A stretch of 22,230 nucleotides of DNA, from positions 1 through 22,230 of IMG/VR virus record IMGVR_UViG_2713896776_000007; one strand, given 5' to 3'. The position numbers and the translations under genes were made by a program. This stretch comes from a virus. Taxonomy: Duplodnaviria > Heunggongvirae > Uroviricota > Caudoviricetes. Every line of letters begins with the position of its first letter. Positions within the stretch are counted from its first letter, which is position 1. The notes under the pieces are model-generated. The model did no database searches. It was not told the origin of the DNA and worked only from the letters and a program-made list of their open reading frames with translations. Shown here piece after piece: positions 1-20,167 of this stretch.

Positions 1-270
1 ATGGAAAATCTACTTTTTGTGATGTGTTGGATTAAAGATCATCATGTGATGTCATTAGCTTTTGGCGTCTTATCTGCAATTTTATGGATTAAATCTGCTA
101 CAGCAAAAGTTGAGTTAGGCAAAAAAATTGTCATGGTTACGTATGAAGATCCCGAACTTAACGTGAATCTCCATGATTTCTTCGCCACTGCGCGGCTTCA
201 ATCTAAGTACAATTCATTTGCAGCATTGTCTGCAGCAGCAACCGCGCTATTCCAGATTATTGGTTTGTAA
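1..270 (+). CDS. hypothetical small membrane protein, possibly 5'-truncated by the window edge
   Basis: The ORF is open from base 1. It has two hydrophobic helices (VMSLAFGVLSAILWI and FAALSAAATALFQIIGL). It is AT-rich like the adjacent rnlAB genes and convergent with rnlB. I recognise no family. Confidence 0.3.
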   Translation: MENLLFVMCWIKDHHVMSLAFGVLSAILWIKSATAKVELGKKIVMVTYEDPELNVNLHDFFATARLQSKYNSFAALSAAATALFQIIGL

Positions 271-407
271 TGCTTACCAGCCCCAAATTAATCAATACCC
301 AGTGGTATTAGCAATGTCCATTTCAAGTACATACGTTCTTAAGACATTTGGGCACTGTCATGTCTGTCGGGGAGGAGGTTAAAATCCTCTCGTGCAAAAT
401 TTCTTAG

Positions 408-770
408 CTAGAGAATACAAAGAACATCATCTGGTGTTAACACAGAGTCTTCTACGTACTCAGGGTGGTTACGTAATACATCTCTCTGATGTCTCAAGAT
501 CTGCGCTGGAATTTCTTGCTCATCCACAATTTTGGCAGTATCCAGCAAAATACTGCCACACCTTATTTCCAGCGAAACAAAGCGATTCCACTCTGGACCA
601 TTAGAACACAAAAGGTCAAACAAAACCTCACCTGTAGCCTGTGAATTGCCCAGTATAACAGAAAGCCTCTTCTCGATTTCGTGAACTGAAGTCAAGGGGT
701 TCTCGTAGCCAGTCGCCATAACGACGGCAATGAGAGCCCCTGAGACGTTAACACCTGTTATTTCAAACAA
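408..770 (-). CDS. rnlB: RnlB-type antitoxin
   Basis: The 120-aa translation (MFEITGVNVSGALIAVVMATGYENPL...LFDLLCSNGPEWNRF...LRNHPEY) matches E. coli K-12 RnlB as I recall it. It overlaps the rnlA stop by 8 nt. The start is TTG, preceded by AAGGA. Confidence 0.85.
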   Translation of the reverse strand: MFEITGVNVSGALIAVVMATGYENPLTSVHEIEKRLSVILGNSQATGEVLFDLLCSNGPEWNRFVSLEIRCGSILLDTAKIVDEQEIPAQILRHQRDVLRNHPEYVEDSVLTPDDVLCIL

Positions 771-1833
771 TATACAAATCCTTAATAATTCCCCATGCCT
801 GTCTGGCCTTAGTCATCAGTCGTGCCATGTCAGAAACCATACGGCTTGTGTCGACAACTATCTCCATATGAAACAGGCCATGACGTTCTCTGTTAAAGAA
901 AGTATAGGCATCATTAATGGTCTTAACCTTAGCTGACGATAAATTGCATCCAAATTGTTGTTTCAGAATAAATTCACTCCCAATTTTATCAAAATAAGGC
1001 CCGAAACCATCCTGCGTGATTGGCATGCCATATCGGTACATTGTTGATTTAAGTACTCCCTCAACTGAACGTAATTCAGGATACAACAACATACAGTAAT
1101 CGGGTAAATCGGGGGCGGCGAGTTTAACACACAGCCCAGAAACGAGCAATTTTTCAACATTCTTATGCAATAGTGGGTACGCATCCCCCATTTCACACTC
1201 TAGATGTGAGCGAGCAACTTCTTTCTGAACTATATACGCTTTGCCATCATCCTGACGAATGAGAACTTTTTCCAGTCCTTGTAAATCGAGTAGCTCTGAC
1301 AAGTTGAATATAAACACTCTATAACATGACAATGGACGCCCTTGTATTTGTAGTGTTCCATTTCTGTGATGCAGACTAACTGTCAACTCATCCTGAAATT
1401 CTGGCGAATGAATTTTCCACACCGTTGTATGAGTGTTCCGTAAGTATTCGTAAAATTGTATATGTGGCTGCTCTGCTGAGAGCTGAAGTACAGATAAAAC
1501 GTTCGCTTCAACGAACCCTTGTAACACCATATTTACCTGTTCAAATTCTGCAGGATTGATGGTTTCATAGAGATCATCAGCCAACTCTTTTCCAAGATTA
1601 TGATTAGCTCCTGTTTGATACTGGACTGTAGACGTCCCTCCGTTATTATAGAAAATGTTAACAGTTGCCAAAGCTTCTCCTGGTTTAGCAAACACAACCC
1701 GAAGTCCTGCTCTTGCACCAGGCATTGGTCCAATTGAATGGACGGAATAGTTTTTATTTTCAATAAATGCCCTAGACGTAGCCTCAATAGTTGTCCGATC
1801 TAAATTTAAATTAGTGTAGTTCCTGACTGTCAT
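763..1833 (-). CDS. rnlA: RnlA (RNase LS) type II toxin endoribonuclease
   Basis: From M38 of the ORF (MTVRNYTNLNLD...) the 356-aa product is collinear with K-12 RnlA, which is 357 aa. Shared motifs include FIENKNYS.QSIGPMPG.RAGLRVVF, LQIQGRPLSCYRVF.FNL, LVSGLCVKLAAPDLPDYCMLLYPELR and AWGIIKDLYIV. The ATG is at 1831-1833. I treat the upstream 37 codons as read-through. Confidence 0.9.
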   Translation of the reverse strand: MTVRNYTNLNLDRTTIEATSRAFIENKNYSVHSIGPMPGARAGLRVVFAKPGEALATVNIFYNNGGTSTVQYQTGANHNLGKELADDLYETINPAEFEQVNMVLQGFVEANVLSVLQLSAEQPHIQFYEYLRNTHTTVWKIHSPEFQDELTVSLHHRNGTLQIQGRPLSCYRVFIFNLSELLDLQGLEKVLIRQDDGKAYIVQKEVARSHLECEMGDAYPLLHKNVEKLLVSGLCVKLAAPDLPDYCMLLYPELRSVEGVLKSTMYRYGMPITQDGFGPYFDKIGSEFILKQQFGCNLSSAKVKTINDAYTFFNRERHGLFHMEIVVDTSRMVSDMARLMTKARQAWGIIKDLYIV

Positions 1834-1967
1834 TTGCTTAACCCTATAAAAAACTTTAGCAAACTCTACAATATAGCCCCTCTTTAGTCTAATCAGGCGC
1901 TGTATCCTGAAATCGGGTACCGATAATATCCCTCCTGCAGCCATGTGTTGGTGTTAACAAGATACTG

Positions 1968-2255
1968 TGTATCAATTGAATCCGTCAGATTGCAAAAGTT
2001 GATGCCTCTTTCGCGCAGTTCCTCCACCAGCACGACAAGATGCCGCATACTGCGCCTCAGTCGATCCAGTTTCCAGACCACCAGCGTATCACCTGCCGAT
2101 AATGTCCTGAGCAGTTTTTTCAGTCCCGGCCTTTCGGACTTTGTACCGCTTATCTTGTCTTCAAAAATCAGCTCGCATCCTGCACAGTTCAGCGCATTAC
2201 GTTGTAGATCTGTGTTCTGGTCATTTGTTGACACACGTACATAGCCAATAAGCAT
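1968..2255 (-). pseudogene. pin: Pin/Gin/Cin-family serine DNA invertase, N-terminal 96 codons only (3' half deleted)
   Basis: MLIGYVRVSTNDQNTDLQRNALNCAGCELIFEDKISGTKSERPGLKKLLRTLSAGDTLVVWKLDRL.RSMRHLVVLVEELRERGINF..LTDSIDT is nearly identical to e14 Pin residues 1-96 as I recall them. After that the frame runs into unrelated AT-rich sequence (QYLVNTNTWLQEG...). The C-terminal dimer helix and HTH domain are absent. There is also a G-to-R change in the DRLGR motif. Confidence 0.9.
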
Positions 2256-2309
2256 GGTAGATCTCCCTGACAAAAGCAGGAATGATGCCATTTGCGCGTT
2301 ATTTCTGCA

Positions 2310-2335
2310 TTTTCATAAACGTTGGTTTGGGAGAA
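2310..2335. repeat. 26-bp Din-family crossover site (gix/pix-like), left
   Basis: The site is ttttcataaacgTTggtttgggagaa. Its reverse complement, ttctcccaaaccAAcgtttatgaaaa, shares the first 14 nt and the central AA core with the site at 4213-4238. It has the 12-2-12 layout of hix/gix/cix/pix sites. Confidence 0.85.
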
Positions 2336-2815
2336 GGCTCTGCATTACCGGTTGGGGTGCCTGTTCCGTGGCCTTCAGCCACTCCGCCAACAGGCTGGCT
2401 GAAATGCAATGGTGCGGCTTTTTCTGCTGAAGAATACCCGGAACTGGCAAAGGCTTACCCGACCAATAAATTGCCTGATTTACGCGGTGAATTTATTCGT
2501 GGCTGGGATGACGGACGTGGAGTGGATAACGGAAGGGGATTATTAACGCTTCAGGACGGTGCGATTGTCAGTCATAACCACTATTGGGGAATCTGGACTT
2601 CACGAACTAACGACCAGACTCTGGAAAGTTTTACAGGCACCACGATTTTAAAACAAATCACGCCCCTGTCTCCGGCCATTGACTTCGATAATTACCCAAT
2701 TCCCAACCCGGCTATTACAGAGGGTGGTGTTGTTGCGGCAACGACTAAACCTGCTGGTGCGAATGAAACACGCCCACGAAATGTCGCTTTTAACTATATT
2801 GTGAGGGCTGCATAA
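2321..2815 (+). CDS. silent alternative tail-fibre C-terminal cassette (Sv'-like, tail-collar domain), with no start of its own
   Basis: VGLGEGSALPVGVPVPWPSATPPTGWLKCNGAAFSAEEYPELAKAYPTNKLPDLRGEFIRGWDDGRG is a typical phage tail-collar motif. The frame begins inside the crossover site. The MMPFARYF... N-terminus in the ORF track is probably not real. Confidence 0.75.
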   Translation, partial: VGLGEGSALPVGVPVPWPSATPPTGWLKCNGAAFSAEEYPELAKAYPTNKLPDLRGEFIRGWDDGRGVDNGRGLLTLQDGAIVSHNHYWGIWTSRTNDQTLESFTGTTILKQITPLSPAIDFDNYPIPNPAITEGGVVAATTKPAGANETRPRNVAFNYIVRAA

Positions 2816-3417
2816 TGAATAACGCAGAATTAAACAGTGAATTAATTGCCACTATGGCAGGAGAAATTACTGTTTATAACTTTGATGTCATGAGTCGGGA
2901 ATATATTTCAGCTTCAACTGAATATCTTGCTATTGGTGTCGGCATTCCGGCATATTCCTGTTTAGATGCCCCAGGCGCATACAAAGCTGGTTATGCAATC
3001 TGCCGTTCTGCAGATTTTAACTCATGGGAATATGTGCCAGACCATCGCGGTGAAACGGTCTATAGCACCGAAACAGGAGAATCAAAAGAAATCACCGCTC
3101 CGGGTGATTACCCTGAAAATACAACCACTATCGCCCCATTAACGCCATATGATAAATGGGATGGTGAGAAATGGGTGACGGATACCGAGGCACAGCATAG
3201 CGCCGCAGTAGATGCAGCAGAAGCACAGCGCCAGTCGCTGATTGATACTGCAATGGCGTCCATCAGTCTGATTCAACTGAAATTGCGGGCCGGACGTAAA
3301 CTGACGCCGGCAGAAACAACCCGGCTTAACGCTGTGCTGGATTACATTGAGGCGGTGACGGCAACAGATACCAGCACCGCGCCGGATGTCATCTGGCCTG
3401 AACTGCCGGAGGCGTAG
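2815..3417 (+). CDS. tfa: tail fibre assembly protein (Tfa/U'-like), partner of the silent cassette
   Basis: The 200-aa product is nearly collinear with K-12 TfaE as I recall it (MNN.ELNSELIAT..G.ITVYN...CRSADFNSWEYVPDHRGETVYST.TGESKEI.APGDYPENTTTIAPL.PYDKWDGEKWVTDTEAQH...DTSTAPDVIWPELPE). Its ATG overlaps the cassette stop (TAATG). Confidence 0.85.
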   Translation: MNNAELNSELIATMAGEITVYNFDVMSREYISASTEYLAIGVGIPAYSCLDAPGAYKAGYAICRSADFNSWEYVPDHRGETVYSTETGESKEITAPGDYPENTTTIAPLTPYDKWDGEKWVTDTEAQHSAAVDAAEAQRQSLIDTAMASISLIQLKLRAGRKLTPAETTRLNAVLDYIEAVTATDTSTAPDVIWPELPEA

Positions 3418-3832
3418 GCCATTCAATATCTGGTGCACTGGAGGTATCAACCAGCTCCAGTGCATCCAGATAATCCAGCCACAAATTATATTGCGCCAGT
3501 TCCTCACCTTTCAGACGACCAATAGCGGCTTTACCGGGCCATTGCTTACTGTTCATGTATTCGTTGGCCTGGTTAATTAGTAGCTGTCTTTCTGATTCAG
3601 TAATTTCAATAAGCTCTTCATGCGTGGGTGGAGGAATATCTGCCCACGCAGGCAGCCCATCATCTCCGGCAATACGGATTTTTCCTTGTGGCGGTTCAGC
3701 CATAAACTCACTGATAATATTCTGATTTACTTCCTTAGCGTCTGATAAATCCCATCCCTCTGATTTATATTTATCAATCATATCCACAGGAAAAAAAGCA
3801 TTATGCCTTGCGCTATAAACATATTCGTTCAT
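3389..3832 (-). CDS. tfa: tail fibre assembly protein (Tfa/U-like), partner of the expressed fibre
   Basis: It has the C-terminal Tfa signature (NLWLDYLDALELVDTSSAPDIEWPTPP). I chose the ATG at 3830-3832 because GGGTGA lies 5 nt upstream. The ORF track starts at a GTG at 3841. Confidence 0.8.
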   Translation of the reverse strand: MNEYVYSARHNAFFPVDMIDKYKSEGWDLSDAKEVNQNIISEFMAEPPQGKIRIAGDDGLPAWADIPPPTHEELIEITESERQLLINQANEYMNSKQWPGKAAIGRLKGEELAQYNLWLDYLDALELVDTSSAPDIEWPTPPAVQAR

Positions 3833-3852
3833 ATAAATCACCCTGAATAAAA

Positions 3853-4515
3853 TTACTCACCAACAGCCCACCAACTGTAATTCATCGATACCGTGTCGCT
3901 GGTTGATGACGTTCTGTAAGCAGAATTAAAACCGGTTAACGTTGGGTCTTCTGCCGTCATCACGAACCCTCGCCCAGCGCCTAAAGGCGCACCGCCATCA
4001 CCAGAATGAGTAAGCATGGCGCAGTCCGCTTTTTTGGGGAAAGGGATGCTGAATGTAATTCTCATTGTTTGCGTCGATAATGTCGGCGTAACCGCACCTC
4101 GACCATATTGCAGGATTTTACCGTTGGGTAATTTCATCCATCCATCACCACTGGCAAAAGAAGCCATGTCCGGTATCTGATTTTCCCCTGTCCCCACATC
4201 CCGTTTTGCCGCTTCTCCCAAACCAAGGTTTTCGAGAGCCGTTTTCACCGTGCCGTCCGATTTGATATCGCCAAACGGATTCTTGCGGCTTAACAGCAGC
4301 GCGCGAAGTGCGGTAAGCAACTGGTCATGCCTCCCCTTCTCCAGGCTGGTACCGGATGCCTCCACCACGCTGCAAAGCTCCTCCTGCAACATGTCAAAGT
4401 AGTCATCATCCAGATCGGTGGCAGGTGTGCCGGTCTGGGGGTTACCACGGGTAAAACCGTTCTTACCCGCGCCGAACTTATCCTTCTGCGCGGTTTTCGT
4501 GTCTATACGATGCAT
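3853..4515 (-). CDS. tail fibre protein in the currently expressed configuration (constant N-terminus plus variable C-terminus)
   Basis: The N-terminus ([46 protein letters not shown]) is the conserved prophage tail-fibre N-terminal domain. ENLGLGE (aa 95-101) is encoded by the crossover site. The C-terminus has the GENQIPDM...[10 protein letters not shown] motif. Confidence 0.85.
4213..4238. repeat. 26-bp Din-family crossover site, right
   Basis: The site is ttctcccaaaccAAggttttcgagag. It is inverted relative to 2310-2335 and has the same AA core dinucleotide. Confidence 0.85.
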
Positions 4516-4518
4516 GGA

Positions 4519-5103
4519 TTACTCCGGATATTTAAAAATTACGTAGGTATGCGACGGGCAGAGTTTGTTAAGCACACACTCGACTACGGTGTCGCCCCAG
4601 ATACGCAGTGCGGAATCACAGGGATCGCCACATGTCATCCAGGTGGTGTTGGTGGCGGCTGGCATGTTGACCTGCCAGTAATACCGCCATTCCGGCGCAT
4701 TCACCGCGTCAGTACAGGCAGATGAGCAGGTGAACGTGCTTTTGTCGTATCGCGTGATGGTGGCGTCTGGTCTGCCCAGGGCAGCAAGCTGTGCAAGGTA
4801 AAAATCCTCATTGATGCCGCCCGCCAGATTAACCTTCGCATCCAGCCGTTGCTGACGCTGGCGAAGGGTCTGCGTCCCTGCCGGAATACATTCATCCGGC
4901 AGGCCGCACAGACGCTCCCAGCGATTTATCAGTTCGGTGGTGGTGCGCGGATCCAGCTCCCGCATCAGGGCATCCGCACGCTGATGAACACGGGTTAATG
5001 AAGGTGCCGCACCGGCAATCGCCGGATCGCTGGCTGACCACGCCGGACCGGGCGGCAACAGTGCCGATAACAGGCGGATGTAATCATCGTTTGTCACGTC
5101 CAT
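4519..5103 (-). CDS. Mu gp48 / YmfQ-like tail protein (DUF2313)
   Basis: [22 protein letters not shown]... is the typical DUF2313 N-terminus. Its position between baseplate J and the fibre gene matches Mu and e14. Confidence 0.8.
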
Positions 5104-6152
5104 GAAATCGTCCCCAGTACCGCCAGTTCGTTTTTCGCAATGGAAATATTGTCTGCCGGTGCAAGCAACTGATGGCTGTATTCCCCGTTCGCACCGGAAA
5201 TCGCCTCACTGATACGCGATACCTTCAGTTCTCCCTGCGGATAACCATCACGCAGCAGGAACGAACGCAACTCCGCGGTAATGGCAGCCCGTATTTCCGG
5301 TGTGTCCGGCGTCACGCGGATATGAAAATCCACCGTATGCGCCACCGGCCTGAACACATACAAATCAGAGCCTGCCACCGGGGCCAGAGGCCCGATATGT
5401 TGTCTTGCCGCCGTTTCCGTTGATTCTTCCGGAATGGGATTAATCAGGTCACTGCTGGCAATCATCACACCGACAGTTCCCGTTCCCATCCAGTGACGGT
5501 ATGTCCATGCGCGGGTAATGCCGGGCACTTCTTTAGCCCAGACGACATAGTCCCCGTCAGCCCCGCCCTGAAGCGTCCAGTAATACCGCTCAATGACGCG
5601 GGCGCGCCACGTTTCCAGATCTTCAGTATCGAATCCGCCAGTCAGGGTATCTGCAACACCGGAAGACGGCAGACCATTCACCGGCGTGACCAGGATTAAT
5701 GCCGTACCGTCGTCAGCGTTACCGACCGCGCCTGCACTTGAGCAAGTGATCGGCACGCGCAGGACACCACCGGAGCTGGTTGCATCAGCAGTTGCCGTGT
5801 ACTGAACCAGGTCAGCGCGCTGAATCACGCTCCCGGCGGTCACCTTCAGGCCATCGCTGACACCTTCCCAGCGCATATACCCGCTGGCAGCCGTGGCCCC
5901 CTTGCGCGGACACCGTTTCATCGCAGCATGTCGCGCCAGCCAGGACTCATCGCACAGGTCAGGCAGCATGTTCATTGCCAGATAATCGATGTAACCGTAA
6001 ACCGTATGCAGCGCCGCCGCATACACCTTTGCCCGCACGTCTTCATCCATGCGCCGGAGCGTGTCGCTGACGTCCAGCCTGGCGAATAAATCGTTACGGA
6101 GCATACTGATATTTTCTGCCAGCGTCGGGCGCTGAAATTCACTGTCCGCCAT
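5094..6152 (-). CDS. baseplate J-like protein (Mu gp47 / JayE-like)
   Basis: It is 352 aa. Its size and synteny fit, and it overlaps both neighbours. It resembles baseplate J-family sequences. Confidence 0.8.
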
Positions 6153-6567
6153 GCGTTATCGCACTCCACAGATCATCAAAAGAAATCATTACCGGTCCGT
6201 CACGACGCCAGAGGGTGATACTGTTACCCAGCTCATTAATCCCGGTGCGGCGGATATCCAGATCAATACGGGACACCACGCCGTCATCAATCATCCATTG
6301 CAGGCATTCGCGGATATACCCCCTTACCGTCTGCACCAGCTGATTGGTCAGTTTGCTGCGCTGAAGCAGCCACAGTCGGGAGCCGTAACGGTCATTCTGT
6401 ACCGCAGGCCAGGTATCCCCCCACCATCCCATCGGGACGTCGGCGTTGTCATCAGGCTCCGCCCGCCGCCAGGTAAACATGGAAATCACCACGGCGCGGG
6501 TCAGCGGATCCAGCGGTGCGCTGGCGCAGGTGCGTTTACCGTTCACCGTCAGCCACAGTTCCATCAT
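6139..6567 (-). CDS. Mu gp46-family baseplate protein
   Basis: It is 142 aa with a GWWGDTW...GSRLW motif typical of the GP46 family, and it is in the syntenic position. Confidence 0.75.
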   Translation of the reverse strand: MMELWLTVNGKRTCASAPLDPLTRAVVISMFTWRRAEPDDNADVPMGWWGDTWPAVQNDRYGSRLWLLQRSKLTNQLVQTVRGYIRECLQWMIDDGVVSRIDLDIRRTGINELGNSITLWRRDGPVMISFDDLWSAITHGGQ

Positions 6568-7112
6568 GCCTCCATCGCTTTATCAGGTTTGTCGGTGTTA
6601 CTGCCCTGACCGTTCTCTCTGTGACGATGCCCGTTATAGGCAAGCCGCATCGCTGACATGGTAGTGCCGCCGGAGTCGCACAGGTCTTTCACCTGTCCGG
6701 TCACTTCAAGGTCCATTTCAAAACGTGCTCTGGGCGCATTGCGAAACGTGATCGTTTTACCTGCACCGTCCACCACGATCCCCTCCCGGGTCAGCGTCAC
6801 AGACTGCCCCTGATCGTCATAGACAGCCACCTCACCCGTCTGCAGCCCTTTCAGGCGGTAGCGCCGGTCCGACACCGTAACAACCACCGCATGAGAACGG
6901 TCGCCATCCGGAAACAACACCACCGCTTCCGCACCGCTGTTTGCCCTTGCGGTAAAACCGTAGGGTTCAAGATGTTCAACCCCGGCTTTGGGTTCACCGG
7001 CAATCAGGGACACATCCACGGTCTGACATTTCGTGGCGGCGCTGATACTTTTCACCACTGCCCGCCCAATCAGGCCGAGAAGTTGTCGCTGCATGGCTTC
7101 AATCGTCCTCAT
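6564..7112 (-). CDS. Mu gp45-like baseplate assembly/spike protein
   Basis: It is 182 aa with an LEPYGFTARANSGAEAVVLFPDGDRSHAVVV motif typical of the Mu Gp45 / gpV family. Its start overlaps the upstream stop by 1 nt. Confidence 0.8.
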   Translation of the reverse strand: MRTIEAMQRQLLGLIGRAVVKSISAATKCQTVDVSLIAGEPKAGVEHLEPYGFTARANSGAEAVVLFPDGDRSHAVVVTVSDRRYRLKGLQTGEVAVYDDQGQSVTLTREGIVVDGAGKTITFRNAPRARFEMDLEVTGQVKDLCDSGGTTMSAMRLAYNGHRHRENGQGSNTDKPDKAMEA

Positions 7113-8191
7113 CAGAACGGGTCCTCCTGTACTCTGGCTTTTTTCTTTTTCTGCGCGCCGGGGGCATCGGGTTCAGGCAGATAAGCATCAGGCGGGCCGA
7201 CACGGATTTCCGTCAGGGTGCCGTTCTGGTCCTGAGTAAACGTGACTTCCGAAACAAGCAGTTCGGTATTGTCAAAACCACAGACCGGATCAAAGACAAT
7301 CACCCGCTGGTTGGGCTGCCACAGCGTACCGTTACCCTGTCGCCAGCCCTGCACCACATAGGTGGTTTCATCCGTCCGCGCCGCCCGTTGCCGGGCTTCA
7401 AAGTCAGCACGCGCAATACAGCCAGCCCCCGTGGCCTGCCCTGTCTGCCTGATATACATCGGACGGTAACGGGCAATAAATGCGTCCTCTGTGCGGGCCC
7501 GCAGCGCGGTGGTGGTGGCCTCACCGAAATCATCGTCGTTTCCGGCACGCTGCCCCGCCACCTGGTAAACTGAAAACCGCTCCCGGATACTCTTCTCCGT
7601 ATCGCAGGAAAGGATGTTTTCCCCAAGTACCAGCGCGGTATGTGCCCGCGTTGAGCCAATACCGCCAATCACCAGCCTGCCGTGCGGATCGTCGTAAGCC
7701 AGTGCCTGCTGCTGACCGAGTATTTTGTTGATTACCTCAATCACCGTTTCACCGTGATCAGGCTGAACATCAGGAATAACACCCGACGGCGCACCGCTGT
7801 TCACCACCTCAATGCCGAAAGGCGCAGCAAGCGCCTGCGCAATCTGCACCAGCGAGCGTCCGTTAAACTGTGTCGGTTCGGCTGCACAGTCAATCAGGTC
7901 AGCCGTCAGACTACGTCCGGCAATACCGGTGCTGACCGAACGGGCATCGTAACGAACGGGCGTCGCCTCCACCCAGCCGGTGATCACCAGCTCATCACCA
8001 ATCAGCACCTCCACTTTTGAACCGTTTTTAATGCGCGGCTGAAGCGTGGTGATACCCTCATCACCCGGCCACTGGCGGGTGATCTCCACACTGAAATCCC
8101 GCGCCAGCCGTTCAATACCGGCACCGATGCGCACCGATGTCCAGCCATTCCACTCCCGGCCATTTACCCGTAGCGTGACATTGTCGTTCAT
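7112..8191 (-). CDS. Mu P (gp44) / gpD-like baseplate hub protein
   Basis: It is 359 aa and sits between N and gp45 as in Mu. Its start overlaps the stop of the N gene. Confidence 0.75.
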   Translation of the reverse strand: MNDNVTLRVNGREWNGWTSVRIGAGIERLARDFSVEITRQWPGDEGITTLQPRIKNGSKVEVLIGDELVITGWVEATPVRYDARSVSTGIAGRSLTADLIDCAAEPTQFNGRSLVQIAQALAAPFGIEVVNSGAPSGVIPDVQPDHGETVIEVINKILGQQQALAYDDPHGRLVIGGIGSTRAHTALVLGENILSCDTEKSIRERFSVYQVAGQRAGNDDDFGEATTTALRARTEDAFIARYRPMYIRQTGQATGAGCIARADFEARQRAARTDETTYVVQGWRQGNGTLWQPNQRVIVFDPVCGFDNTELLVSEVTFTQDQNGTLTEIRVGPPDAYLPEPDAPGAQKKKKARVQEDPF

Positions 8192-9564
8192 TGCACTGGC
8201 ACCTTCAGAGGGATCACCGGCACAAAGCCGGGATGCGTAATGGCATTACGCCGGATAATGTCCGCGTCACGCGCCGCGTTATCAAACCAGGTCGCCGCCA
8301 GCACCAGCGCGGGTAAAACCTCATCCGGTGTGCGCTGAATGATCCGAGCAGACTGTTCAAGGCGCGTGTTGATATCCGCATTCAGATCTGCTTTCACCCG
8401 GCGCAGCGCCAGAAACAGCGCATCACTGGTTGTACGGGACAACTCCTTATCAATTGCCGTATTCAGTGTGTCGCGAATGTCGGTCAGTTCTTCCCACGTT
8501 GGCAGGTCAACCGTGTTTTTCACCGCCGGTGCATTGTTCAGTGCCGGATGCGTGACGGAAGGCCAGCCGGAGCTCTGCGCGGGTGTTGTTGACTGCCCCA
8601 CTGCGGCATTCTGCATCACCGCAGAAGTTGTTGGCGCAGGCAATCGGGTGACGGCATACGCCGCTTCGCTGATTGCGGTCGTACGAAGGATGCTGGCAAC
8701 CACGTTACGCTGCTGCGTCGCCGTGGCGGTGGTTTTACTGTCCGTTTTCCAGACGCCGCGCGGTTGCAGATCGCTGCCGAGGCTGACACCGGAAAGCGTT
8801 TTGATCATGGTGACCAGGTCGCTGGCGTTACCATAAAGGCGTTTCCCGGTACGCCACATTTTCTGCACCTGCTCAACGAAATTTTTTCCTGACGATGGCG
8901 GCGGCAGAAGTACCGAGATATCCCCCTGCAACAGCCTGGCAGCATCCGATACGGCAGAATCCACCACTTTCATCGCATCAGAAACATACCCCAGCATTGT
9001 GCTGGCATTACCGACGACGTCGTTCTGCACAAAATCCGCCACGCCATCGATACTGAAACCACTGAAACTGTCACTGATGCAGTCATCCAGTGCAGAACAG
9101 GATGACATCAGCGTCTGCGCCGTCGCCGCACCTGATGTGGGGTAAGAGAGTTCTCCCGCTTCGACAAACTTCAGGTCAAAGCGGACAATACGCCCTTCAC
9201 TTTTCGATGTGCTGACCCGAACTTCCCCGTCAACACAGACTTTCAGCTCACCGTATGTCGGATGGACAAGCGTGCCGGGACCGGGTTTATTCAGCGCATC
9301 AATCAGGCGATCGCGCTGGTCAAAGCAGTCATCTCCCACCACATAAGCCGTGATGGACGGGCGGAAAGTAACTTTTCCCAGATCTTCGGTATAGGGCTTG
9401 TCGCGGTTCGGGTATTCGTGTGTTTCCACACGGCGACCGGTTCCCGCACTTTCTTCTTCAACCTTAAACGATACGCCGCGAAATGACGCGTCCTGAAGTC
9501 TGTCACGCCAGCCTGAAGACGACGAAAGTAATGAAGGTCGGGTGGGAAATGAGGATAAATCCAT
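8188..9564 (-). CDS. DNA circularisation protein N (Mu gp43-like)
   Basis: The N-terminal motif ASFRGVSFKVEEESAGTGRRVETHEYPNRDKPYTEDLG is characteristic of the DNA_circ_N domain. It follows the tape measure gene as in Mu. Confidence 0.85.
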   Translation of the reverse strand: MDLSSFPTRPSLLSSSSGWRDRLQDASFRGVSFKVEEESAGTGRRVETHEYPNRDKPYTEDLGKVTFRPSITAYVVGDDCFDQRDRLIDALNKPGPGTLVHPTYGELKVCVDGEVRVSTSKSEGRIVRFDLKFVEAGELSYPTSGAATAQTLMSSCSALDDCISDSFSGFSIDGVADFVQNDVVGNASTMLGYVSDAMKVVDSAVSDAARLLQGDISVLLPPPSSGKNFVEQVQKMWRTGKRLYGNASDLVTMIKTLSGVSLGSDLQPRGVWKTDSKTTATATQQRNVVASILRTTAISEAAYAVTRLPAPTTSAVMQNAAVGQSTTPAQSSGWPSVTHPALNNAPAVKNTVDLPTWEELTDIRDTLNTAIDKELSRTTSDALFLALRRVKADLNADINTRLEQSARIIQRTPDEVLPALVLAATWFDNAARDADIIRRNAITHPGFVPVIPLKVPVQ

Positions 9565-9588
9565 AGACTGACCTCAAAAAGGACTGCG

Positions 9589-11496
9589 TTATCGTGGAAA
9601 ACGAAAAGGGGAATACCCCACATCGTGCGTGATTTTCATCAGGGGATCGGCTTTGTCCGGTACATCAATTATCTTCATACCTGGCGGAGCATTCTCGAAC
9701 GTGACTTTCAGCTCGCTGTGCTGTGTCATGGAAGAAGATGGATTCAACAGCGGAACATTGGGTTTGTACTGACTCAGGCTGGCCTGATATTGCTCGTACT
9801 CTTTACGATCAAAAAAAGGCGTCCAGTCTGAAGCCAGAAACAGCCCTTTATTATCCAGCCAGTTAACCGTATCTTCAGGAACAACACTTTCCAGAGTATC
9901 TTTAACCGGCTCATACATCAGGGTTCCCAGAAAACCATATACCCCGGCCTTCCCGATAAAGCCGCGGCCTTTCCCCATCAATCCCGTTTCTGCCGATACC
10001 TTCCCCAGCGTACGCATCTCTCTGGTCACTGCGGTAATGGATTTGGTAACGTCAGCAACCCATTTGGTTGCCATAAACAGGGCAATCGCTTTCAGAACAG
10101 TTTCCCATCCCCCCATCGCCTGCGCCGTTTCATCCATCACGTGCCAGACTTTTTTTATGACAGGACCTACGGTTTCCCAGTTATCAATAATGAGGTAAGC
10201 GCCACCAACCAGAAGAGCAATCAGCCCCTTAGCAGGCGTCATATTCATCACACCGCCGAGAACTTTCATAATTCTGGACAAAGAGCCTGCAGCGGCTCCC
10301 ACCGTCAGTAAGGCCAGACCGATTTTAGCAATGGTCTTAACGAGCTCCGGGTTTTCACGGACAAACGTTCTCACTTCCTCAAGGAGCGGTTTTACCGCTT
10401 CAAGACCATCATTAACCTCAGGAAGAAACGTTTCCCCCAGCGTGGAAGAAATGGCATCAAGTTGATTTTGCAGAAGTAAAAGCTGGTTTTCCGTCGTCGC
10501 TGCCCTCGAAGCATATTCCTTCTGCATCGAACTGCCATACTGCTGGGAATCCGCAACCCGCCTGAAGTTGGTACGCAACAAATCAAGGTTAGTCAGCAGA
10601 GGTGCTATCGCGCCCAGAGACTCTTTCCCGAACAGGGCATTCAGCACAGCTGCCCGTTTTTCTTTAGGCACTTTAGCCATCGCATCCAGTACAGATAGCA
10701 TGGTGCCCCGGGCATCTTTCTGCATATCAGCAGCTAATTTCTTCGGATTGATCCGCAGAAAACGCAATGCCTGTTTCTGCGATTTTGTCGCAGAATTTCC
10801 CGCGGTCAGGGAAAGCATGAAGTTCTTGATCCCTGTGGCGGCAATTTCTGACTCCACGCCCATCCCGGCAATGGTTGCCCCCATTGCCGCGATTTCGCCG
10901 GAAGCCACACCTGCAACACCACCTAAAGGACCAATACGCGTAACAATATCGGAGATTTTCTTCGCGTTCGCCGGGCCGGTATTACCAAGGTAGTTGATTT
11001 TGTCAGCCAGCCCGGCCACTTCATCCTGCGTCATATTAAACGCAGTACGCCACTGGGCCATCATCTGCCCGGACTCTTCAGCCGTGGTATCAAAGGCCAC
11101 GCCCATCTTCACCGCATCAGTGGCAAACTGCATCAGTTCATCACGTGCAATCCCGGCCTGACCACCCGCCGCCACGATTTCAGCGATACCTTCCGCCGAC
11201 ATAGGCAGTTCGGTTGACAGGTCACGCACCTGCTCCGTCATGGCCTTAAACGCATCCGGCGTATCCAGACCGTCCACCACTTTGCGGACATCAGCCATCT
11301 TCGATTCAAGGGTGATGGCTGATTTTACAGGGAGTACCAGTGCCCCCATTATTGCAGTACCCGCCCCGGCAGCGCCCAGAGCAAGGCTGGAGACTTCTTT
11401 CTGAAATCCCTTAAGCTGACGCTGCATACCTTTAAGCGGGCCGGATAGCCTGTCAACGGCGGTGATGATGGCTTTCAGCTGAAAATTATCAGCCAT
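9589..11496 (-). CDS. tail tape measure protein (635 aa), cognate to this tail module
   Basis: It has a TP901-type core (SAEGIAEIVAAGGQAGI...INYLGNTGPANAKKISD), hydrophobic central helices, and the expected position after the chaperone gene. Confidence 0.9.
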   Translation of the reverse strand: MADNFQLKAIITAVDRLSGPLKGMQRQLKGFQKEVSSLALGAAGAGTAIMGALVLPVKSAITLESKMADVRKVVDGLDTPDAFKAMTEQVRDLSTELPMSAEGIAEIVAAGGQAGIARDELMQFATDAVKMGVAFDTTAEESGQMMAQWRTAFNMTQDEVAGLADKINYLGNTGPANAKKISDIVTRIGPLGGVAGVASGEIAAMGATIAGMGVESEIAATGIKNFMLSLTAGNSATKSQKQALRFLRINPKKLAADMQKDARGTMLSVLDAMAKVPKEKRAAVLNALFGKESLGAIAPLLTNLDLLRTNFRRVADSQQYGSSMQKEYASRAATTENQLLLLQNQLDAISSTLGETFLPEVNDGLEAVKPLLEEVRTFVRENPELVKTIAKIGLALLTVGAAAGSLSRIMKVLGGVMNMTPAKGLIALLVGGAYLIIDNWETVGPVIKKVWHVMDETAQAMGGWETVLKAIALFMATKWVADVTKSITAVTREMRTLGKVSAETGLMGKGRGFIGKAGVYGFLGTLMYEPVKDTLESVVPEDTVNWLDNKGLFLASDWTPFFDRKEYEQYQASLSQYKPNVPLLNPSSSMTQHSELKVTFENAPPGMKIIDVPDKADPLMKITHDVGYSPFRFPR

Positions 11497-11904
11497 GCTT
11501 CATCTCCTCATTTATACGGACGGCCTCTGCCTCCAGATCAGCAAAGTGGGAAATAGCCGTCCGGCGAAGTTCAAGGGGGTTTAATTTCCAGAACCACGCG
11601 ACATTGTAGAATCGCTTCCGGAGGTCTCTTCCGTCTCCAAGCCGGTAAAAAAACGCATTACAATCATGCCTGCCTTGAAAATATCCAGCTTCGTCATCTG
11701 CGCTGCAGACGAGCGCGGGATCCCGGCCAGAAGCGGGATATATTTCAGCGCCACCTGACTGTCCATTTTCATACCACCATCAGGCGAAACAGAGAAAGGG
11801 AACCCCAGCGCCTCAATCTCGTCATACGTAGGCTCACGTATTTCCAGCACATGCAGTGTTTCTTTGTGGGCGATGATCGGTTTTTTAAGTACAAGCTCAA
11901 TCAC
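11489..11904 (-). CDS. tail assembly chaperone, predicted -1 frameshift product (G-T analogue)
   Basis: On the coding strand the zero frame reads CGT TTT TTT ACC. The -1 frame is open from the T7 run to a TGA that overlaps the tape-measure ATG (ATGGCTGA). It adds ...YRLGDGRDLRKRFYNVAWFWKLNPLELRRTAISHFADLEAEAVRINEEMKHG. Confidence 0.6.
11581..11904 (-). CDS. tail assembly chaperone (Mu gp41-like), zero-frame product
   Basis: It is 107 aa and sits between the tube and tape measure genes. It contains a slippery run near its 3' end. Confidence 0.7.
   Translation of the reverse strand: MIELVLKKPIIAHKETLHVLEIREPTYDEIEALGFPFSVSPDGGMKMDSQVALKYIPLLAGIPRSSAAQMTKLDIFKAGMIVMRFFTGLETEETSGSDSTMSRGSGN
11647..11653 (-). 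promoter_or_regulatory. slippery heptamer T TTT TTT for a programmed -1 frameshift
   Basis: There are seven A on the + strand, hence seven T on the coding strand, in X XXY YYZ register with the chaperone frame. Confidence 0.6.
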
Positions 11905-12257
11905 TGGTAATCCCCTTCTTCACCGTGGAACTCAAGATCGACCGTGCCTTCTTCGGCATTATGGTTCGCTTCGCCGTGCAGCCAGGCAGACGACAGTACA
12001 TAGACCTGACCGTTCGCCAGCTCGGCAGTGATGGTCATCTCATCAGACGAGGTGATTTTGCTCACCGGAAAATTCTTCGGCACCTTGAAGGTCCCTTTGA
12101 CATAAGGCGCACGGTGAGTTTCCTTGCGGTCCACTGAACCGTCCAGGCCGATGATGTCATCATTGACCGTCCTGTTCATGGGCACCTCAATGCCGCCGGT
12201 CAGCGATAGCTGCTGACCGTCAATTTTGAAATAACAGGTTCCCCCGATACGGGCCAT
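11901..12257 (-). CDS. tail tube protein (Mu M / gp40-like)
   Basis: It is 118 aa (MARIGGTCYFKIDGQQLSLTGG...) and directly follows the sheath gene with overlapping stop and start. Confidence 0.8.
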   Translation of the reverse strand: MARIGGTCYFKIDGQQLSLTGGIEVPMNRTVNDDIIGLDGSVDRKETHRAPYVKGTFKVPKNFPVSKITSSDEMTITAELANGQVYVLSSAWLHGEANHNAEEGTVDLEFHGEEGDYQ

Positions 12258-14568: not shown

Positions 14569-14704
14569 GAAGTTATTACGTGGAGCCAGTCGCCAGCCGC
14601 TGCCACCGGATGCACCTGATCCACCGCGCGATAAATAAGCCGCAATCCGTGAGATAAATGGACACGGTGCGGCTTTTCAGATACTGCAAAGGAATTACAA
14701 ATTA

Positions 14705-17182
14705 TCAGTCGTAAGCAACCCGGCGCTTACGGGCAAGAATAGCTTCCAGCGCTCTTTCAATCTCAGGAATGGACAGCTTAAGCGCATTCGCTACATCCGG
14801 TGCTGGTGACTTGTTCTTGCCATCAATATAGATATGGTTAATGACGTTAATCCCTGCACCTGCCGGTGAATGTGAATCCCGGCCTCTGGATAAGGTAAGG
14901 TCGCCGCGCATATAGCGCTCTAATACGGGTGGTACTTTCGGTACATCCGGCACCATCATATCAGCCAGCCGCGAGGAGGCTTTTAGCGCCAGCGATGCAG
15001 ACTGACCGATACCAATCGCCGCCCCTTCTGCGATGTTTGAACCGAAGCCCATAAAGACCCGGCTTGGCGAGTGAATCCCCAGCTTTTCCTTGAACCACCC
15101 GCCGACGCTATCGCCCATCTCGGTAACGGTATTCTTGAGCGACTCCCACTTATTTTTGATACCGTTCACCAGTCCGTCAATCAGGTGACCGCCAAACTCG
15201 GTAAACTGGCCGGGAAGGTCGATGTTAAACCACTTCATGACCCCCGCAAACGCCTTGTAGAACAGCCCCAGCGGCGACCAGTTCAGGATTAGCTTACTGA
15301 CGCCGAGAACGCCGCCGTTAAAGGCCGTTTTGACTTCCTCCCATCGCTGTGAGAACCATCGACTTATTGCCCCCCAGTTGCGGTATATCAGGTATGCGCC
15401 CCCGGCGATGACGGTTATCGCAATGCCTAAGGGATTCATCATCAGCGCCCGGCCAAACCAGAGAAATGCTTTTGCAACGACCATGACGCCCCTGAACAGC
15501 CCACCTGCCAGCGCTTTACCCAGCGTCCCGGCTCCCTTCGCTACGGTACTGAATCCAGTAGCCAGCCAGCGCAACCTGCCACCAACACCAAGGGCGGCTT
15601 TCAGCTTCACCCAATGAGTGTGTACCAGAACAGCGTTTTTCCACATCCCAACAAAAGGTGAAAAAAGCAGATTAAGGCCGAGCTTCAGACCGACAGTGGC
15701 AATTTTCAGCCCCAGCAGTGCGCCCACGGTTTTTGCCACACCCTGAACAAGCGTCGGATGTTGCTCTATCCAGAGCTTCGTTGTCTGAATCATCGGGATT
15801 AATTGCCGGGTTGCTGACACAAATGTAGGGGACAACTGATCGCCGAGAGAGATAGATAAATCACGGGTGTTTATCATCAGGGCTTTGGTTGCTTCCAGCG
15901 GCGATTTGAGCCTTTCAGCATAGGATGCCGCCAGCAGGTCATTATCAGCCGCTTTAAGTGCACCAGAGCGGATTGCCCTGTATTTATCCATGTTAGCAAG
16001 CATAGGGCGAACGAACGCCATTACCTGCATATCGGTGAACATCTCACCCAGCCCAAAGTTTTTAGCCAGACTTTGTAAGGCCTCGTCCCGCGCTTTGTTG
16101 TCCTGAATTTGCATTGCGGATTTAAAACCAGCCAGAGCTTTCGGACTCGTTGCATTAAGGTATCTTTGGGTTACATCCAGCATACCTTCAATGGGGGAAA
16201 CTCCGGCTGCTTTATAATTCGCAAGAGACCCCATCAGGTCGATACCTAAATCGGCAAATCGCTTCTGCGTATCAGGCGCAAAAATCTTGGTGAGGAAGTT
16301 CCTGAAATTGTTTGCAGTCTCATCCGGTGAACCTGAACCAATCATAGCGACCTGCAAACTGGCCCCAATCTCCGCCACTGCATCCTTACCGTCTGCAATA
16401 CCCTGCATCATCGGCGCAAGCGACTGAATCCATTTCACCTGGTCAGGGATTTCAAAAGACCCCTGGTCACCTGCGTAGGCCATGATGTTCTGTACCGCGC
16501 CAAATTCTTTTGCGCTGCCTTTCAGCGAGTTTTGCCACACCGCCGCAACCTTTGCCCATTCCGTTCCTGCGGTACGGGTTGCCGTGGCTGCACGGGCGAT
16601 ATTCGGCATGTAGTTGCCAATATCTGAAAGCCCGTCAATGTTATCGCTGATAAGTGAACCAACGGCGTCCTGCATATCGCTCTGATACTGGTTGTATTTG
16701 AGCGACCACCCTTTGATTTGCTCTCCCAGAGTCTTACGGGTTTTATCGTCATATTTCGCTGTGATTGACATATCAATCATTTTATCTTCAAACGATGCCG
16801 ACTGTTCTATAGCCGGGGACACAAGACTGTAAGCAGCCCTGACTTGTGCATACGCCTCTACTCCCTGACCGTAGAGCGCCATGCGGTTAGATTTCAGGGC
16901 GTCAGAAGTGGCAGACGCTGCCGACAGGCGGGACTGCTGGCGGTTAAGCTGTTCCAGCGTTCTGCCGACCCGTTGCAGGTCATTGTTCAGGCGCGAGGCT
17001 ACGCCCGAACCAACCTGACCGTAACGCTGCATGGCGCGTGACAGGCTGCTTTGCTGCTCCGTCAGTCGGCGTGAGGTGTCGCCGAGAGAATCCAGAGTAC
17101 GCCGGGTACTGCTCATCGCGGAACGAAAACTGCTCCCGACAATGCCGCCAATCATCACGCCAACAGAAAAATTATTGCTCAT
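14705..17182 (-). CDS. second tape-measure-like protein (825 aa), out of normal tail-gene context
   Basis: It has a TP901-type core region, long predicted helices and hydrophobic glycine-rich central segments. Near the C-terminus is the IHSPSRVF motif, which is common in tape measure proteins. GGAG lies 6 nt upstream of the ATG. Confidence 0.8.
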   Translation of the reverse strand: MSNNFSVGVMIGGIVGSSFRSAMSSTRRTLDSLGDTSRRLTEQQSSLSRAMQRYGQVGSGVASRLNNDLQRVGRTLEQLNRQQSRLSAASATSDALKSNRMALYGQGVEAYAQVRAAYSLVSPAIEQSASFEDKMIDMSITAKYDDKTRKTLGEQIKGWSLKYNQYQSDMQDAVGSLISDNIDGLSDIGNYMPNIARAATATRTAGTEWAKVAAVWQNSLKGSAKEFGAVQNIMAYAGDQGSFEIPDQVKWIQSLAPMMQGIADGKDAVAEIGASLQVAMIGSGSPDETANNFRNFLTKIFAPDTQKRFADLGIDLMGSLANYKAAGVSPIEGMLDVTQRYLNATSPKALAGFKSAMQIQDNKARDEALQSLAKNFGLGEMFTDMQVMAFVRPMLANMDKYRAIRSGALKAADNDLLAASYAERLKSPLEATKALMINTRDLSISLGDQLSPTFVSATRQLIPMIQTTKLWIEQHPTLVQGVAKTVGALLGLKIATVGLKLGLNLLFSPFVGMWKNAVLVHTHWVKLKAALGVGGRLRWLATGFSTVAKGAGTLGKALAGGLFRGVMVVAKAFLWFGRALMMNPLGIAITVIAGGAYLIYRNWGAISRWFSQRWEEVKTAFNGGVLGVSKLILNWSPLGLFYKAFAGVMKWFNIDLPGQFTEFGGHLIDGLVNGIKNKWESLKNTVTEMGDSVGGWFKEKLGIHSPSRVFMGFGSNIAEGAAIGIGQSASLALKASSRLADMMVPDVPKVPPVLERYMRGDLTLSRGRDSHSPAGAGINVINHIYIDGKNKSPAPDVANALKLSIPEIERALEAILARKRRVAYD

Positions 17183-17214
17183 GGTTCACTCCGGTAATGA
17201 GTGGTTCGGTGGCG

Positions 17215-17808
17215 TCATTCGGTCAGGGACAGGCCGCTGATTCCGGTAATCCCGGCAATTTCCTCGCTGACAGCCATCAGTTCACTTTCAAGCCCGGTAC
17301 GTTCGCTGACCAGCGCCGCAACGGTCTTACGGCGTTCTGCCAGTGACGGAAGTTTGTCATTGCCCCACACCACGCTTTTATCCTTCTTAAGCGCTTCGGT
17401 CAGGCGGGTGGCGACCACATCCGGGAAGAAAAAGCAGAGCTTGCGCATAACCGCCATCCCGGTATCAGCCGGGGAGATGTTTCCACCCAACCCCACCAGA
17501 CGGAACAGGCCGGAAATATCGCCGCTCTCATTCTCCAGATTGCCCCAGCGTTCGGCGTTCCCTTCACTGCCGGAACTGTTGCAGAGGACACGCTTGAATG
17601 ACTGATATTCTTCCTGCCCGAATCGCTCAATATATTCAGGAATGAAAGAACAGTAATCATTAAGCGATAAAGGCATATCCTGTAATGTGGTTATTTCGCC
17701 GTTAATTTCACTAATGCGGCGAGAGAGTTTTTCTTTCTGCTCATTCAGGGAGGCAAGATTATTTTTAACGGCGTTCAGTGCTTCGATAAGGGAAATAACT
17801 GGTTTCAT
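17215..17808 (-). CDS. hypothetical protein with coiled-coil ends (197 aa)
   Basis: It is a clean ORF whose start is 1 nt from the upstream stop. It is heptad-like at the N-terminus (LNAVKNNLASLNEQKEKLSRRISEINGEITTLQ) and at the C-terminus. I recognise no family, but a scaffold-like role is conceivable. Confidence 0.45.
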   Translation of the reverse strand: MKPVISLIEALNAVKNNLASLNEQKEKLSRRISEINGEITTLQDMPLSLNDYCSFIPEYIERFGQEEYQSFKRVLCNSSGSEGNAERWGNLENESGDISGLFRLVGLGGNISPADTGMAVMRKLCFFFPDVVATRLTEALKKDKSVVWGNDKLPSLAERRKTVAALVSERTGLESELMAVSEEIAGITGISGLSLTE

Positions 17809-17809
17809 T

Positions 17810-18424
17810 TTAATAACTCCAGATAAAAGGCGTGGTGAGTGTGAGTGCTTCGGAATAGGAGACGTTACAGGCTTCGCTTACATCCTTTATTAAAAGGTGC
17901 TGCGCTGCTCTCTGGCTGTCAGCTATGCCGTCGAACTCTGAGAAATAAACGTGTGATTCATTGTGACCAAAACAGACCGGGTAAGCGCTTTCCATAAATT
18001 CCACCTGCTCCAGCCCTTTAACGGCTGGCGGCTGTGAGCCGAGAAAACCGATATGGCGTAGATACCAAGCTCCGGTGCCTGCCGGGTTGCTGGCCTCGCC
18101 GGGCTTATAGAATGACGCAGATACTTTCCTGTAACGCCCTGAGCGCACCAGCCCCAGCAGGGTATCATCCGGTTTTACCAGTGCGAAAAGCCTGCCGTTC
18201 TTGCTTATCAGTCCGGTGGTTTCGCCATAGGCCGGGCTGTTACTGGCCGGATGCCCCAGACACAGCGGCGCACCGTAACCCGCGCTGCGATAGCCGTTAT
18301 AGGCCGCTGCCATGTTGTCGATATCCTCGTCGGAAAAGCTGATTTCCTGTCCCGCCATCGCGGTATGCGTTCCCGCCCGGAATATCTCAATCGTTTTCCA
18401 GTTGCCCAAATTAAGATTTGTCAT
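17810..18424 (-). CDS. GPO / Mu-I-like capsid protease-scaffold N-terminal domain protein (204 aa)
   Basis: The pattern W..IEIFRAG.HT...G.EISFSDEDIDNMAAAY........APLCLGH......AYGE...L...GRLFA.V.P.D.L..LV..G.Y..VSASFY...YL.H.GFLG..PPAVKGL..V.F parallels the P2 gpO and Mu I N-terminal domains as I recall them. This is remote similarity only. Confidence 0.5.
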   Translation of the reverse strand: MTNLNLGNWKTIEIFRAGTHTAMAGQEISFSDEDIDNMAAAYNGYRSAGYGAPLCLGHPASNSPAYGETTGLISKNGRLFALVKPDDTLLGLVRSGRYRKVSASFYKPGEASNPAGTGAWYLRHIGFLGSQPPAVKGLEQVEFMESAYPVCFGHNESHVYFSEFDGIADSQRAAQHLLIKDVSEACNVSYSEALTLTTPFIWSY

Positions 18425-18466
18425 TTACCTGTTCTCGGTTGTGATGTGTAAACAGTGCTTTGCTGC

Positions 18467-18823
18467 TTAGTGTCTGGCAGCGCTATCTTTCAGGCTGTTT
18501 CTGTATTCACGGCGTTTTTGGGCGATAATGTTGTAAATCCATTGCAGGGAATAGCCGTATTTTTTCGCTATTTCAGCGATGGGAATACCTTCATTAAAGT
18601 CTGCAAAAACCAGATCATATTTCTCTTCATTCTGGTCTTTTGTTCCTTTTGGGAAGTAAAGGTTAAGCCCGCCGTATACATCTGACAGATACGCCATGAT
18701 GTCTACAGCGATAGATTCAGACTGACGTTTATCGACACCGTACATGACAAGGCGGCAGGAAATGTGCGTAGCCATATCACTAAGCACTTCGGCAGATTGA
18801 CGCATTTTTTGTTTGTTGGTCAT
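18467..18823 (-). CDS. Mor/C-family transcriptional activator
   Basis: The C-terminal HTH (EGIPIAEIAKKYGYSLQWIYNIIAQKRRE) and the length (118 aa from the ATG at 18821-18823) are typical of the Mu Mor/C family. Confidence 0.8.
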   Translation of the reverse strand: MTNKQKMRQSAEVLSDMATHISCRLVMYGVDKRQSESIAVDIMAYLSDVYGGLNLYFPKGTKDQNEEKYDLVFADFNEGIPIAEIAKKYGYSLQWIYNIIAQKRREYRNSLKDSAARH

Positions 18824-19022
18824 GACTATCACCCGTTGCAATATCAGTAATTCAGTCAGAAAAGGCTTTATAAAGCTTTACAGCGTGCGACTGGCGGTAA
18901 AGGCGAACCTTGACCGCAGCAAACCAGCCTGACGGCTTAGAAAGCGTTACAGCACCTTGTTAAAGTCAGTTAATAATATCGGGTGTGGGCGGGGATGTTT
19001 TTTAATGTACTTTAGATATGAA

Positions 19023-19046
19023 GAAGCCCCTCAGAGGAGGGGCTTC
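19023..19046 (-). terminator. hairpin terminator after the DUF3077-like gene
   Basis: It has a perfect 10-bp GC-rich stem (gaagcccctc / gaggggcttc) and a 4-nt loop, 17 nt after the stop. The downstream U-tract is weak (UUCAUAUCU). Confidence 0.5.
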
Positions 19047-19062
19047 GCGGGATTACGCCAGA

Positions 19063-20093: not shown

Positions 20094-20167
20094 GACTGTT
20101 ATCCTACGCATAACGGTTTACTGGTTAGGCCATAGCAAGTGCTCGCAACATTTGTTATGGCCGTTTC

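Follow-up and report, generated by a model that had tools for sequence, protein, structure and literature searches.

An e14-type tail-fibre inversion switch with a truncated invertase gene is found in both orientations in otherwise identical Escherichia coli prophage DNA

Invertible segments of the Din family (Pin/Gin/Cin/Hin) are well described from the G segment of phage Mu, served by Gin, and the C segment of phage P1, served by Cin. Both have a fibre gene split into a constant part (Sc) and a variable part (Sv), alternative Sv′-U′ pairs, 26-bp crossover sites with a central dinucleotide, and a recombinational enhancer within the 5′ part of the invertase gene (nucleotides (nt) 19-90 of cin). 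The invertase genes differ in direction, cin being directed towards cixL whereas pin and gin are directed away from the segment. The H segment of Salmonella also has a Fis- and enhancer-dependent serine invertase, Hin, and can be acted on in trans by Fin of Fels-2, but it flips a flagellin promoter with no exchange of fibre tips and its own hin is intact. In the cryptic prophage e14 of Escherichia coli K-12 the fibre switch, or P segment, lies in the gene order ymfQ-stfP-tfaP-tfaE-stfE-pinE-mcrA. Here we describe a locus with this same gene order within a 22,230-bp stretch of DNA (IMG/VR virus record IMGVR_UViG_2713896776_000007, positions 1 to 22,230, hereafter the window). Its pin gene is cut at codon 96, and its fibre segment is found in both orientations in otherwise identical DNA. 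Mu and P1 carry complete, self-sufficient switches of viable phages with fibres of 505-988 amino acids (aa), whereas we consider it very probable that the present locus is an orphan e14-type switch with a broken pin that is still inverted in trans by another serine invertase.

Architecture of the fibre segment and its crossover sites

The sole strong inverted repeat within 1800-4700 of the window is 20 nt long, 95 % complementary and located at 2317-2336 and 4212-4231. It coincides with two 26-bp crossover sites, one proximal to pin at 2310-2335 on the minus strand (TTCTCCCAAACCAACGTTTATGAAAA read from 2335 to 2310, core dinucleotide at 2322-2323) and one on the fibre side, within the fibre coding sequence, at 4213-4238 on the plus strand (TTCTCCCAAACCAAGGTTTTCGAGAG, core at 4225-4226). 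An earlier note on this DNA, made from the sequence, had claimed two such sites with their first 14 nt and the AA core in common, and this proved correct: the sites are composed of TTCTCCCAAACCAA followed by CGTTTATGAAAA and of TTCTCCCAAACCAA followed by GGTTTTCGAGAG, the 14 leading nt including the central AA. With up to two mismatches allowed TTCTCCCAAACCAA occurs exactly twice in the window, against a chance expectation of 0.16. Both 26-bp sites are letter-for-letter those of the K-12 e14 P segment, one matching the pinE-proximal site and the other the stfP-side site.

The sites delimit an invertible segment of the P-segment type of 1,903 bp (2323-4225), assigned from an in silico inversion that reproduces a deposited contig (L003, see below). 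Just outside it lies the constant N-terminal part of the fibre, Sc, with approximately 96 codons (4226-4515, minus strand), downstream of a Mu gp48-like baseplate gene. Sc is joined at present to the expressed tip Sv, which carries a gp53-like C-terminal domain (3853-4225, minus strand; Pfam Gp53-like_C, E=3.1e-12), the whole fibre gene (4515 to 3853) forming an open frame of 220 aa. The 147-aa Tfa chaperone that partners this tip is encoded at 3389-3832 on the minus strand (Pfam Caudo_TAP, E=1.9e-31). In the opposite orientation, and presently unjoined to the constant part, lie the alternative tip Sv′ with a tail-collar domain (2324-2815, plus strand; Pfam Collar, E=8.7e-16) and its 200-aa Tfa partner (2815-3417, plus strand; Pfam Caudo_TAP, E=2.6e-32). 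The open reading frame (ORF) list and the Pfam matches bear out the claim that both tips and both Tfa chaperones have open frames, and the four ORFs have the lengths seen in strain 81EVA, a relative with an intact pin. Sc is joined in frame to either tip, and the product computed after inversion is a 260-aa fibre with the collar tip; the earlier note had foreseen the collar tip correctly and had put the length at about 258 aa, slightly too low. Its description of the 220-aa fibre as unusually short did not hold, as fibres in relatives measure 194, 209, 216, 220, 241, 260 and 275 aa and the family range of 194-275 aa makes this length normal.

A further ORF starts from an ATG at 2282, between the pin remnant and the left site and thus outside the segment, and reads across the site to give a StfE-like product of 177 aa. 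After inversion the same start yields 136 aa with the gp53-like tip (9561-9971 of L003, minus strand), and this chimeric ORF is the counterpart of StfE/StfE2. The two Tfa genes converge and share their last 29 nt (3389-3417), and a weak inverted repeat (3336-3353 and 3462-3479) is found in their C-terminal regions.

On the evidence of its sequence the locus is an e14-type tail-fibre host-range switch of the Din family. Apart from gene order and crossover sites it shares with e14 an invertase remnant identical to pinE at 271 of 288 positions, a collar-tip side with approximately 93 % identity, short fibres (StfP has 209 aa) and a cargo or defence gene beyond pin, mcrA in e14 and rnlAB here. It differs from e14 in the cut at codon 96 of pin and in segment length (1,903 bp versus 1,797 bp). 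The gp53-like tip and its Tfa belong to another allele, for which K-12 offers no nucleotide match over 3545-4202. The prophage is integrated at ssrA, whereas e14 occupies icd, and its Mu-like tail module is still complete.

Both orientations in otherwise identical DNA

We utilized an exact-sequence look-up of the 120-aa product of the pin remnant across NCBI, ENA and Logan assemblies. The identical product was present on at least 24 contigs, which carry the same prophage adjoining smpB/ssrA and include both orientations of the segment. The window is identical to contig L016 (GCA_001309555.1), which is probably where it comes from, at 100 % over 14,515 bp, while L003 and L006 match it at 100 % over 1-2336 and 4212-12255 with 2317-4231 inverted. 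When the window was inverted in silico (2323-4225) it reproduced L003 with 0 mismatches over 12,255 bp. Breakpoints at 2322-2337 and 4211-4226 were tolerated and one base further outward produced mismatches, confining the exchange to 15-16 bp that hold the core dinucleotide. L016 and L003 agree at 100 % across flanks of 8,044 bp and 8,484 bp, with the segment alone flipped; the longer flank spans ssrA, smpB, ratA, bamE, recN, nadK and part of grpE. They are thus clonal DNA set apart solely by the inversion at the crossover sites. In a second lineage, a 97 %-diverged prophage with a different tip allele, contigs L004 and L005 share flanks of 5,949 bp and 10,445 bp at 100 % around a flipped segment of 1,848 bp. 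Two lineages with the truncated gene thus each show both orientations amid 100 % identical flanks, and because the junction that truncates it is shared by descent the inversions postdate the loss of the invertase. That the segment could be flipped in trans, as the earlier note proposed, is strongly supported by this natural variation among public assemblies.

The contigs are mostly short-read assemblies, and the opposite orientations might be taken for assembly artefacts. This is extremely unlikely, given that assembler k-mers exceed the 20-bp repeat in length, so that real reads must span each junction, that each orientation turns up repeatedly among independent assemblies of several samples (NCBI, ENA and Logan), and that the orientation-specific fibres were deposited independently, the 220-aa form as WP_054622898.1 and the 260-aa fusion as ‘tail fiber protein [Escherichia coli]’. 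One further contig, L012, ends near the left site and was considered as a sign of mixed orientations within one sample; its end lies 40 nt past the repeat and does not coincide with the branch point, and it was set aside as uninformative.

The same product, with breakpoints in the same 15-16 identical bases, would be expected had the 20-bp inverted repeats undergone RecA-dependent homologous recombination. Such recombination would however have had to flip the segment twice, in two lineages that show 0 differences over 16.5 kb and 16.4 kb, which calls for a high rate, and to have done so at repeats that are exactly the functional e14 crossover sites. A repeat of 20 bp that includes one mismatch offers RecA at most the shortest homology with which it recombines efficiently, and we judge this route very improbable. 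Alternatively, the segment could have been inverted before the truncation, with a module of rnlAB and the pin remnant later entering prophages that were already fixed in each orientation, in which case the switch would be dead. Such a module, comprising orf89, rnlBA and the remnant, has demonstrably been shuffled among prophage backgrounds, and the homology between strain 5CRE51 and the window ends exactly at the left site, at 2335. Each lineage would nevertheless need two independent gains of the identical junction that left 0 differences in 16 kb of prophage and chromosomal backbone, and with one inversion per lineage being far more parsimonious this history appears quite improbable.

Truncated invertase gene, retained enhancer and inversion in trans

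The pin stub comprises codons 1-96 of a PinE-type serine invertase (1968-2255, minus strand; tblastn, Pfam and protein alignment) and lies just outside the range of 2256-4515 to which the earlier note had assigned it. A tblastn search of the window with K-12 PinE gave a match limited to aa 1-96 (2255 to 1968, 96.9 % identity). The ORF continues past codon 96 into unrelated sequence up to a stop at 1893, and its 120-aa product is 70-74 % identical to Gin/Cin. The Pfam Resolvase match covers model positions 2-106 of 145 and no helix-turn-helix domain was found in the stub by the Pfam search, the stub being without helix E and the DNA-binding domain. In RefSeq the identical 288-bp piece of strain 5CRE51 is entered as a pseudogene, ‘recombinase family protein, incomplete, missing C-terminus’. 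When the stub was aligned with Gin, Cin and two PinE sequences, the DRLGR motif was seen to read DRLRR (G67R) and the stub to carry R88C and S89N as well, all at residues invariant in PinE, Gin and Cin. The earlier note had rightly described the reduction to codons 1-96 and the G-to-R change; the other two substitutions are additional.

Because helix E and the DNA-binding domain are missing, the resident invertase is presumably inactive and the switch would be locked in cis. The complete adjacent serine invertase of about 184-193 aa that is characteristic of the Din family is lacking, and the other defining features are present, with a putative enhancer recognised by homology, so that the locus is, as far as can be read from its sequence, an orphan among Din-family invertible segments. 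A rearrangement joined pin codon 96 to the region upstream of the rnlAB cassette. We give almost no credence to the alternative that the 96-codon stub or its 120-aa product is still active and inverts the segment on its own. In favour of it, the stub keeps the region of the catalytic serine (YVRVST) with the greater part of the catalytic domain, and its open frame extends to 120 codons. However, helix E and the entire helix-turn-helix DNA-binding domain are absent, G67R, R88C and S89N alter the invariant residues, and serine invertases require the C-terminal domain for site binding.

The P1 GenBank record annotates an ‘enhancer of Cin-mediated C-segment inversion’ at 31678-31749, corresponding to cin nt 19-90. 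Once the stub is aligned to pinE, gin and cin, this element falls on the window from 2237 to 2166, which places a putative Fis-dependent recombinational enhancer at 2166-2237 (no strand assigned; invertase nt 19-90) with 55 of 72 positions identical to cin and 70 of 72 to K-12 pinE. The earlier note had suggested that the enhancer is retained in the 288-bp remnant, and the homology supports this; its concern that the enhancer might lie beyond codon 96 fell away, as the homologue corresponds to codons 7-30. The homologue begins 85 bp from the centre of the left site, and the Hin enhancer is located approximately 100 bp from hixL (PMC3798978). There are no insertions or deletions between the homologue and the left site, and the stretch from stub to collar tip is gap-free against K-12 e14, so that the homologue and the left site are placed relative to each other as in the functioning system of K-12. 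Retention of a putative Fis-dependent enhancer within the stub is thus supported by homology, and the element may be used during flipping.

We propose that Sc would be read by the late operon through into whichever tip-chaperone pair faces it, giving the 220-aa fibre with the gp53-like tip in the present state and the 260-aa fibre with the collar tip in the inverted state. A serine invertase from another element would bind both crossover sites, Fis on the stub enhancer would assemble the invertasome, and the segment would then rotate. A trans-acting invertase as the flipping agent, and its identity, are what we infer here; candidate donors are PinE-type or PinQ/PinR-type enzymes of another prophage or a plasmid. 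Potential donors are common, because a full-length pinE-like gene is present in 1,179 of 5,426 complete E. coli genomes (at the megablast level, with PinQ/PinR types uncounted).

Inversion by a foreign enzyme has direct precedents. In K-12, the e14 P segment, which has the repeats TTGGTTTGGGAGAAGG, is inverted by PinQ and PinR from the prophages Qin and Rac (Kirigo et al., NAR 2025, PMC12529663), so that an enzyme encoded in one prophage acts on the fibre segment, bounded by exactly these repeats, of another. In K-12 pinE is intact and the trans action redundant, whereas here it is proposed to be obligatory. Action of Fin on the Salmonella H segment and of PinE on the G segment of Mu are trans cases cited in the same paper (PMC12529663), where the Keio pinE deletion is also reported to lock the K-12 segment despite the remaining pinQ and pinR. 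This lock could fit the loss of the cis enhancer together with the pinE coding sequence, and could equally reflect dominance of PinE at native expression. From our reading of the Keio design, we take the deletion to remove the enhancer along with the coding sequence.

A number of points weigh against inversion by a foreign enzyme acting through the stub enhancer. Breakpoints within 15 identical bases do not by themselves distinguish site-specific from homologous recombination, and the role of the enhancer is argued from homology. The same stub is present in approximately 66 complete genomes without the left site and the whole segment; the stub therefore persists without the switch, and its retention needs no selection for the enhancer. 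No second resolvase-like stretch was found in the 22-kb window with K-12 PinE as the tblastn query, and none of the 5,426 complete E. coli genomes (RefSeq) covers at least 80 % of window positions 1-4600, so that this particular pairing of prophage and stub is absent from them.

Distribution, prophage context and significance

The junction of rnlA with pin is present in 71 of the 5,426 complete genomes, in lambdoid contexts, and is old and widespread. Five of the 71 are of the 5CRE51 type, all in one orientation and with a degenerate right site; next to the stub and left site they have another gp53-like tip, within a lambdoid prophage. The 5CRE51 sites are located at 10310-10335 and 11844-11869 of its contig, the stub-side site with one mismatch and the fibre-side site degenerate (TTCTCCCAATTGAAGGTATGCGAGAA), and the Stf gene is annotated without a C-terminus. 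This type is probably a truly locked derivative. Other junction genomes seen are of the JJ1886 type (for example the ST131 strain JJ1886), in which pin is reduced to nt 78-288, and nt 1-77 are missing together with the left site and the segment. We considered the repeated survival of the 5′ (enhancer) part of pin as a sign of selection and discarded it as evidence, since cargo-side deletions necessarily leave 5′ stubs and since the stub is kept even where there is no longer a switch.

The module of orf89, rnlB, rnlA and the pin stub (window 1-1967) is found at 99 % identity across different prophages. These include the myovirus-tailed prophage of the window, lambdoid prophages at ssrA in JJ1886, ETEC4088 and 5CRE51, and a heavily deleted prophage remnant adjoining proBA-like genes. 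The homology with 5CRE51 stops exactly at 2335, which hints that prophage ends may have been exchanged at or near the left crossover site. Additional pin remnants of E. coli, S88 and UM146 being among the strains that hold them, appear to be independent and retain only approximately the first 120 nt of pin and the left site (matching query positions 735-936 of window 1400-2335). They would be further orphan switches with a stub just long enough to include nt 19-90.

The host element, an E. coli prophage, combines an HK97-like head with a contractile tail of the Mu type, and the switch lies at its ssrA-proximal end. The tail genes of the window are on the minus strand and read from high to low coordinates. 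They form a complete Mu-like contractile tail module with terminator, sheath, tube, tape measure, DNA-circularisation protein and gp44/45/46/47/48-like baseplate proteins. In place of the 3′ portion of pin stands a cassette that adjoins ssrA; it borders the switch without belonging to it. It comprises rnlA (763-1833, minus strand; Pfam RnlA_toxin_N, RnlA_toxin, RnlA-toxin_DBD and HEPN_RnaseLS) and rnlB (408-770, minus strand; Pfam RnlB_antitoxin), with an 89-aa ORF (1-270) beyond rnlB. The overlap of the two genes at 763-770 and the three-domain toxin with its HEPN RNase domain are those of an RnlA/RnlB type II toxin-antitoxin system, in agreement with the RefSeq annotation.

A unit of 7.76 kb occupies 14617-22230 of the window and runs approximately 140 bp past its end. 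Copies with 99-100 % identity were found at unrelated chromosomal sites in other assemblies, one between serS and dmsC, one interrupting a dmsA-like gene and a third adjoining a DUF808 gene, with a left part that differs. Two of the copies are bounded by 5-bp direct repeats (CATAT and CCGAT), the right end finishes in CA and GAGATAA motifs recur near both ends. The unit encodes an 825-aa PhageMin_Tail protein, proteins of 197 and 204 aa, a Mor activator, a 96-aa protein, a 253-aa DUF3102 protein and HicB-like, 114-aa and Mu Gp27-like proteins. No transposase was seen among these genes, and the unit resembles a Mu-like transposable element of the non-autonomous kind. Its insertion point is 144 nt short of the end of a 168-aa gene upstream of the tail terminator, because of which the prophage is probably unable to make virions.

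The e14 P segment and its trans-complementation are already well known, indeed textbook knowledge extended experimentally in 2025, and the gain here is incremental; what is new is a natural recombinase-less instance that still switches. StfE2 was reported in 2025 to block T2 adsorption in K-12 (PMC12529663). One could suppose that the enhancer-bearing stub and intact sites are a maintained ‘slave’ switch, run by foreign invertases for receptor-masking defence against phages. We regard this as unlikely. If true, the switch would be controlled by the invertases of the host or of other prophages, for example the phage-inducible PinQ/PinR, and flipping would toggle the StfE/StfE2-like chimeric ORFs starting at 2282 along with the fibre tips, providing a defence beside RnlAB in a prophage that is probably past making virions. 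Independently of such a role, the orientation polymorphism in clonal DNA is evidence for a natural Din-family switch that would depend wholly on an invertase encoded elsewhere. For annotation, it implies that a pseudogene recombinase alone is no ground to score a locus as dead, and as the stub keeps pin nt 1-288 the locus may offer a natural test bed for the requirement of the enhancer in cis.

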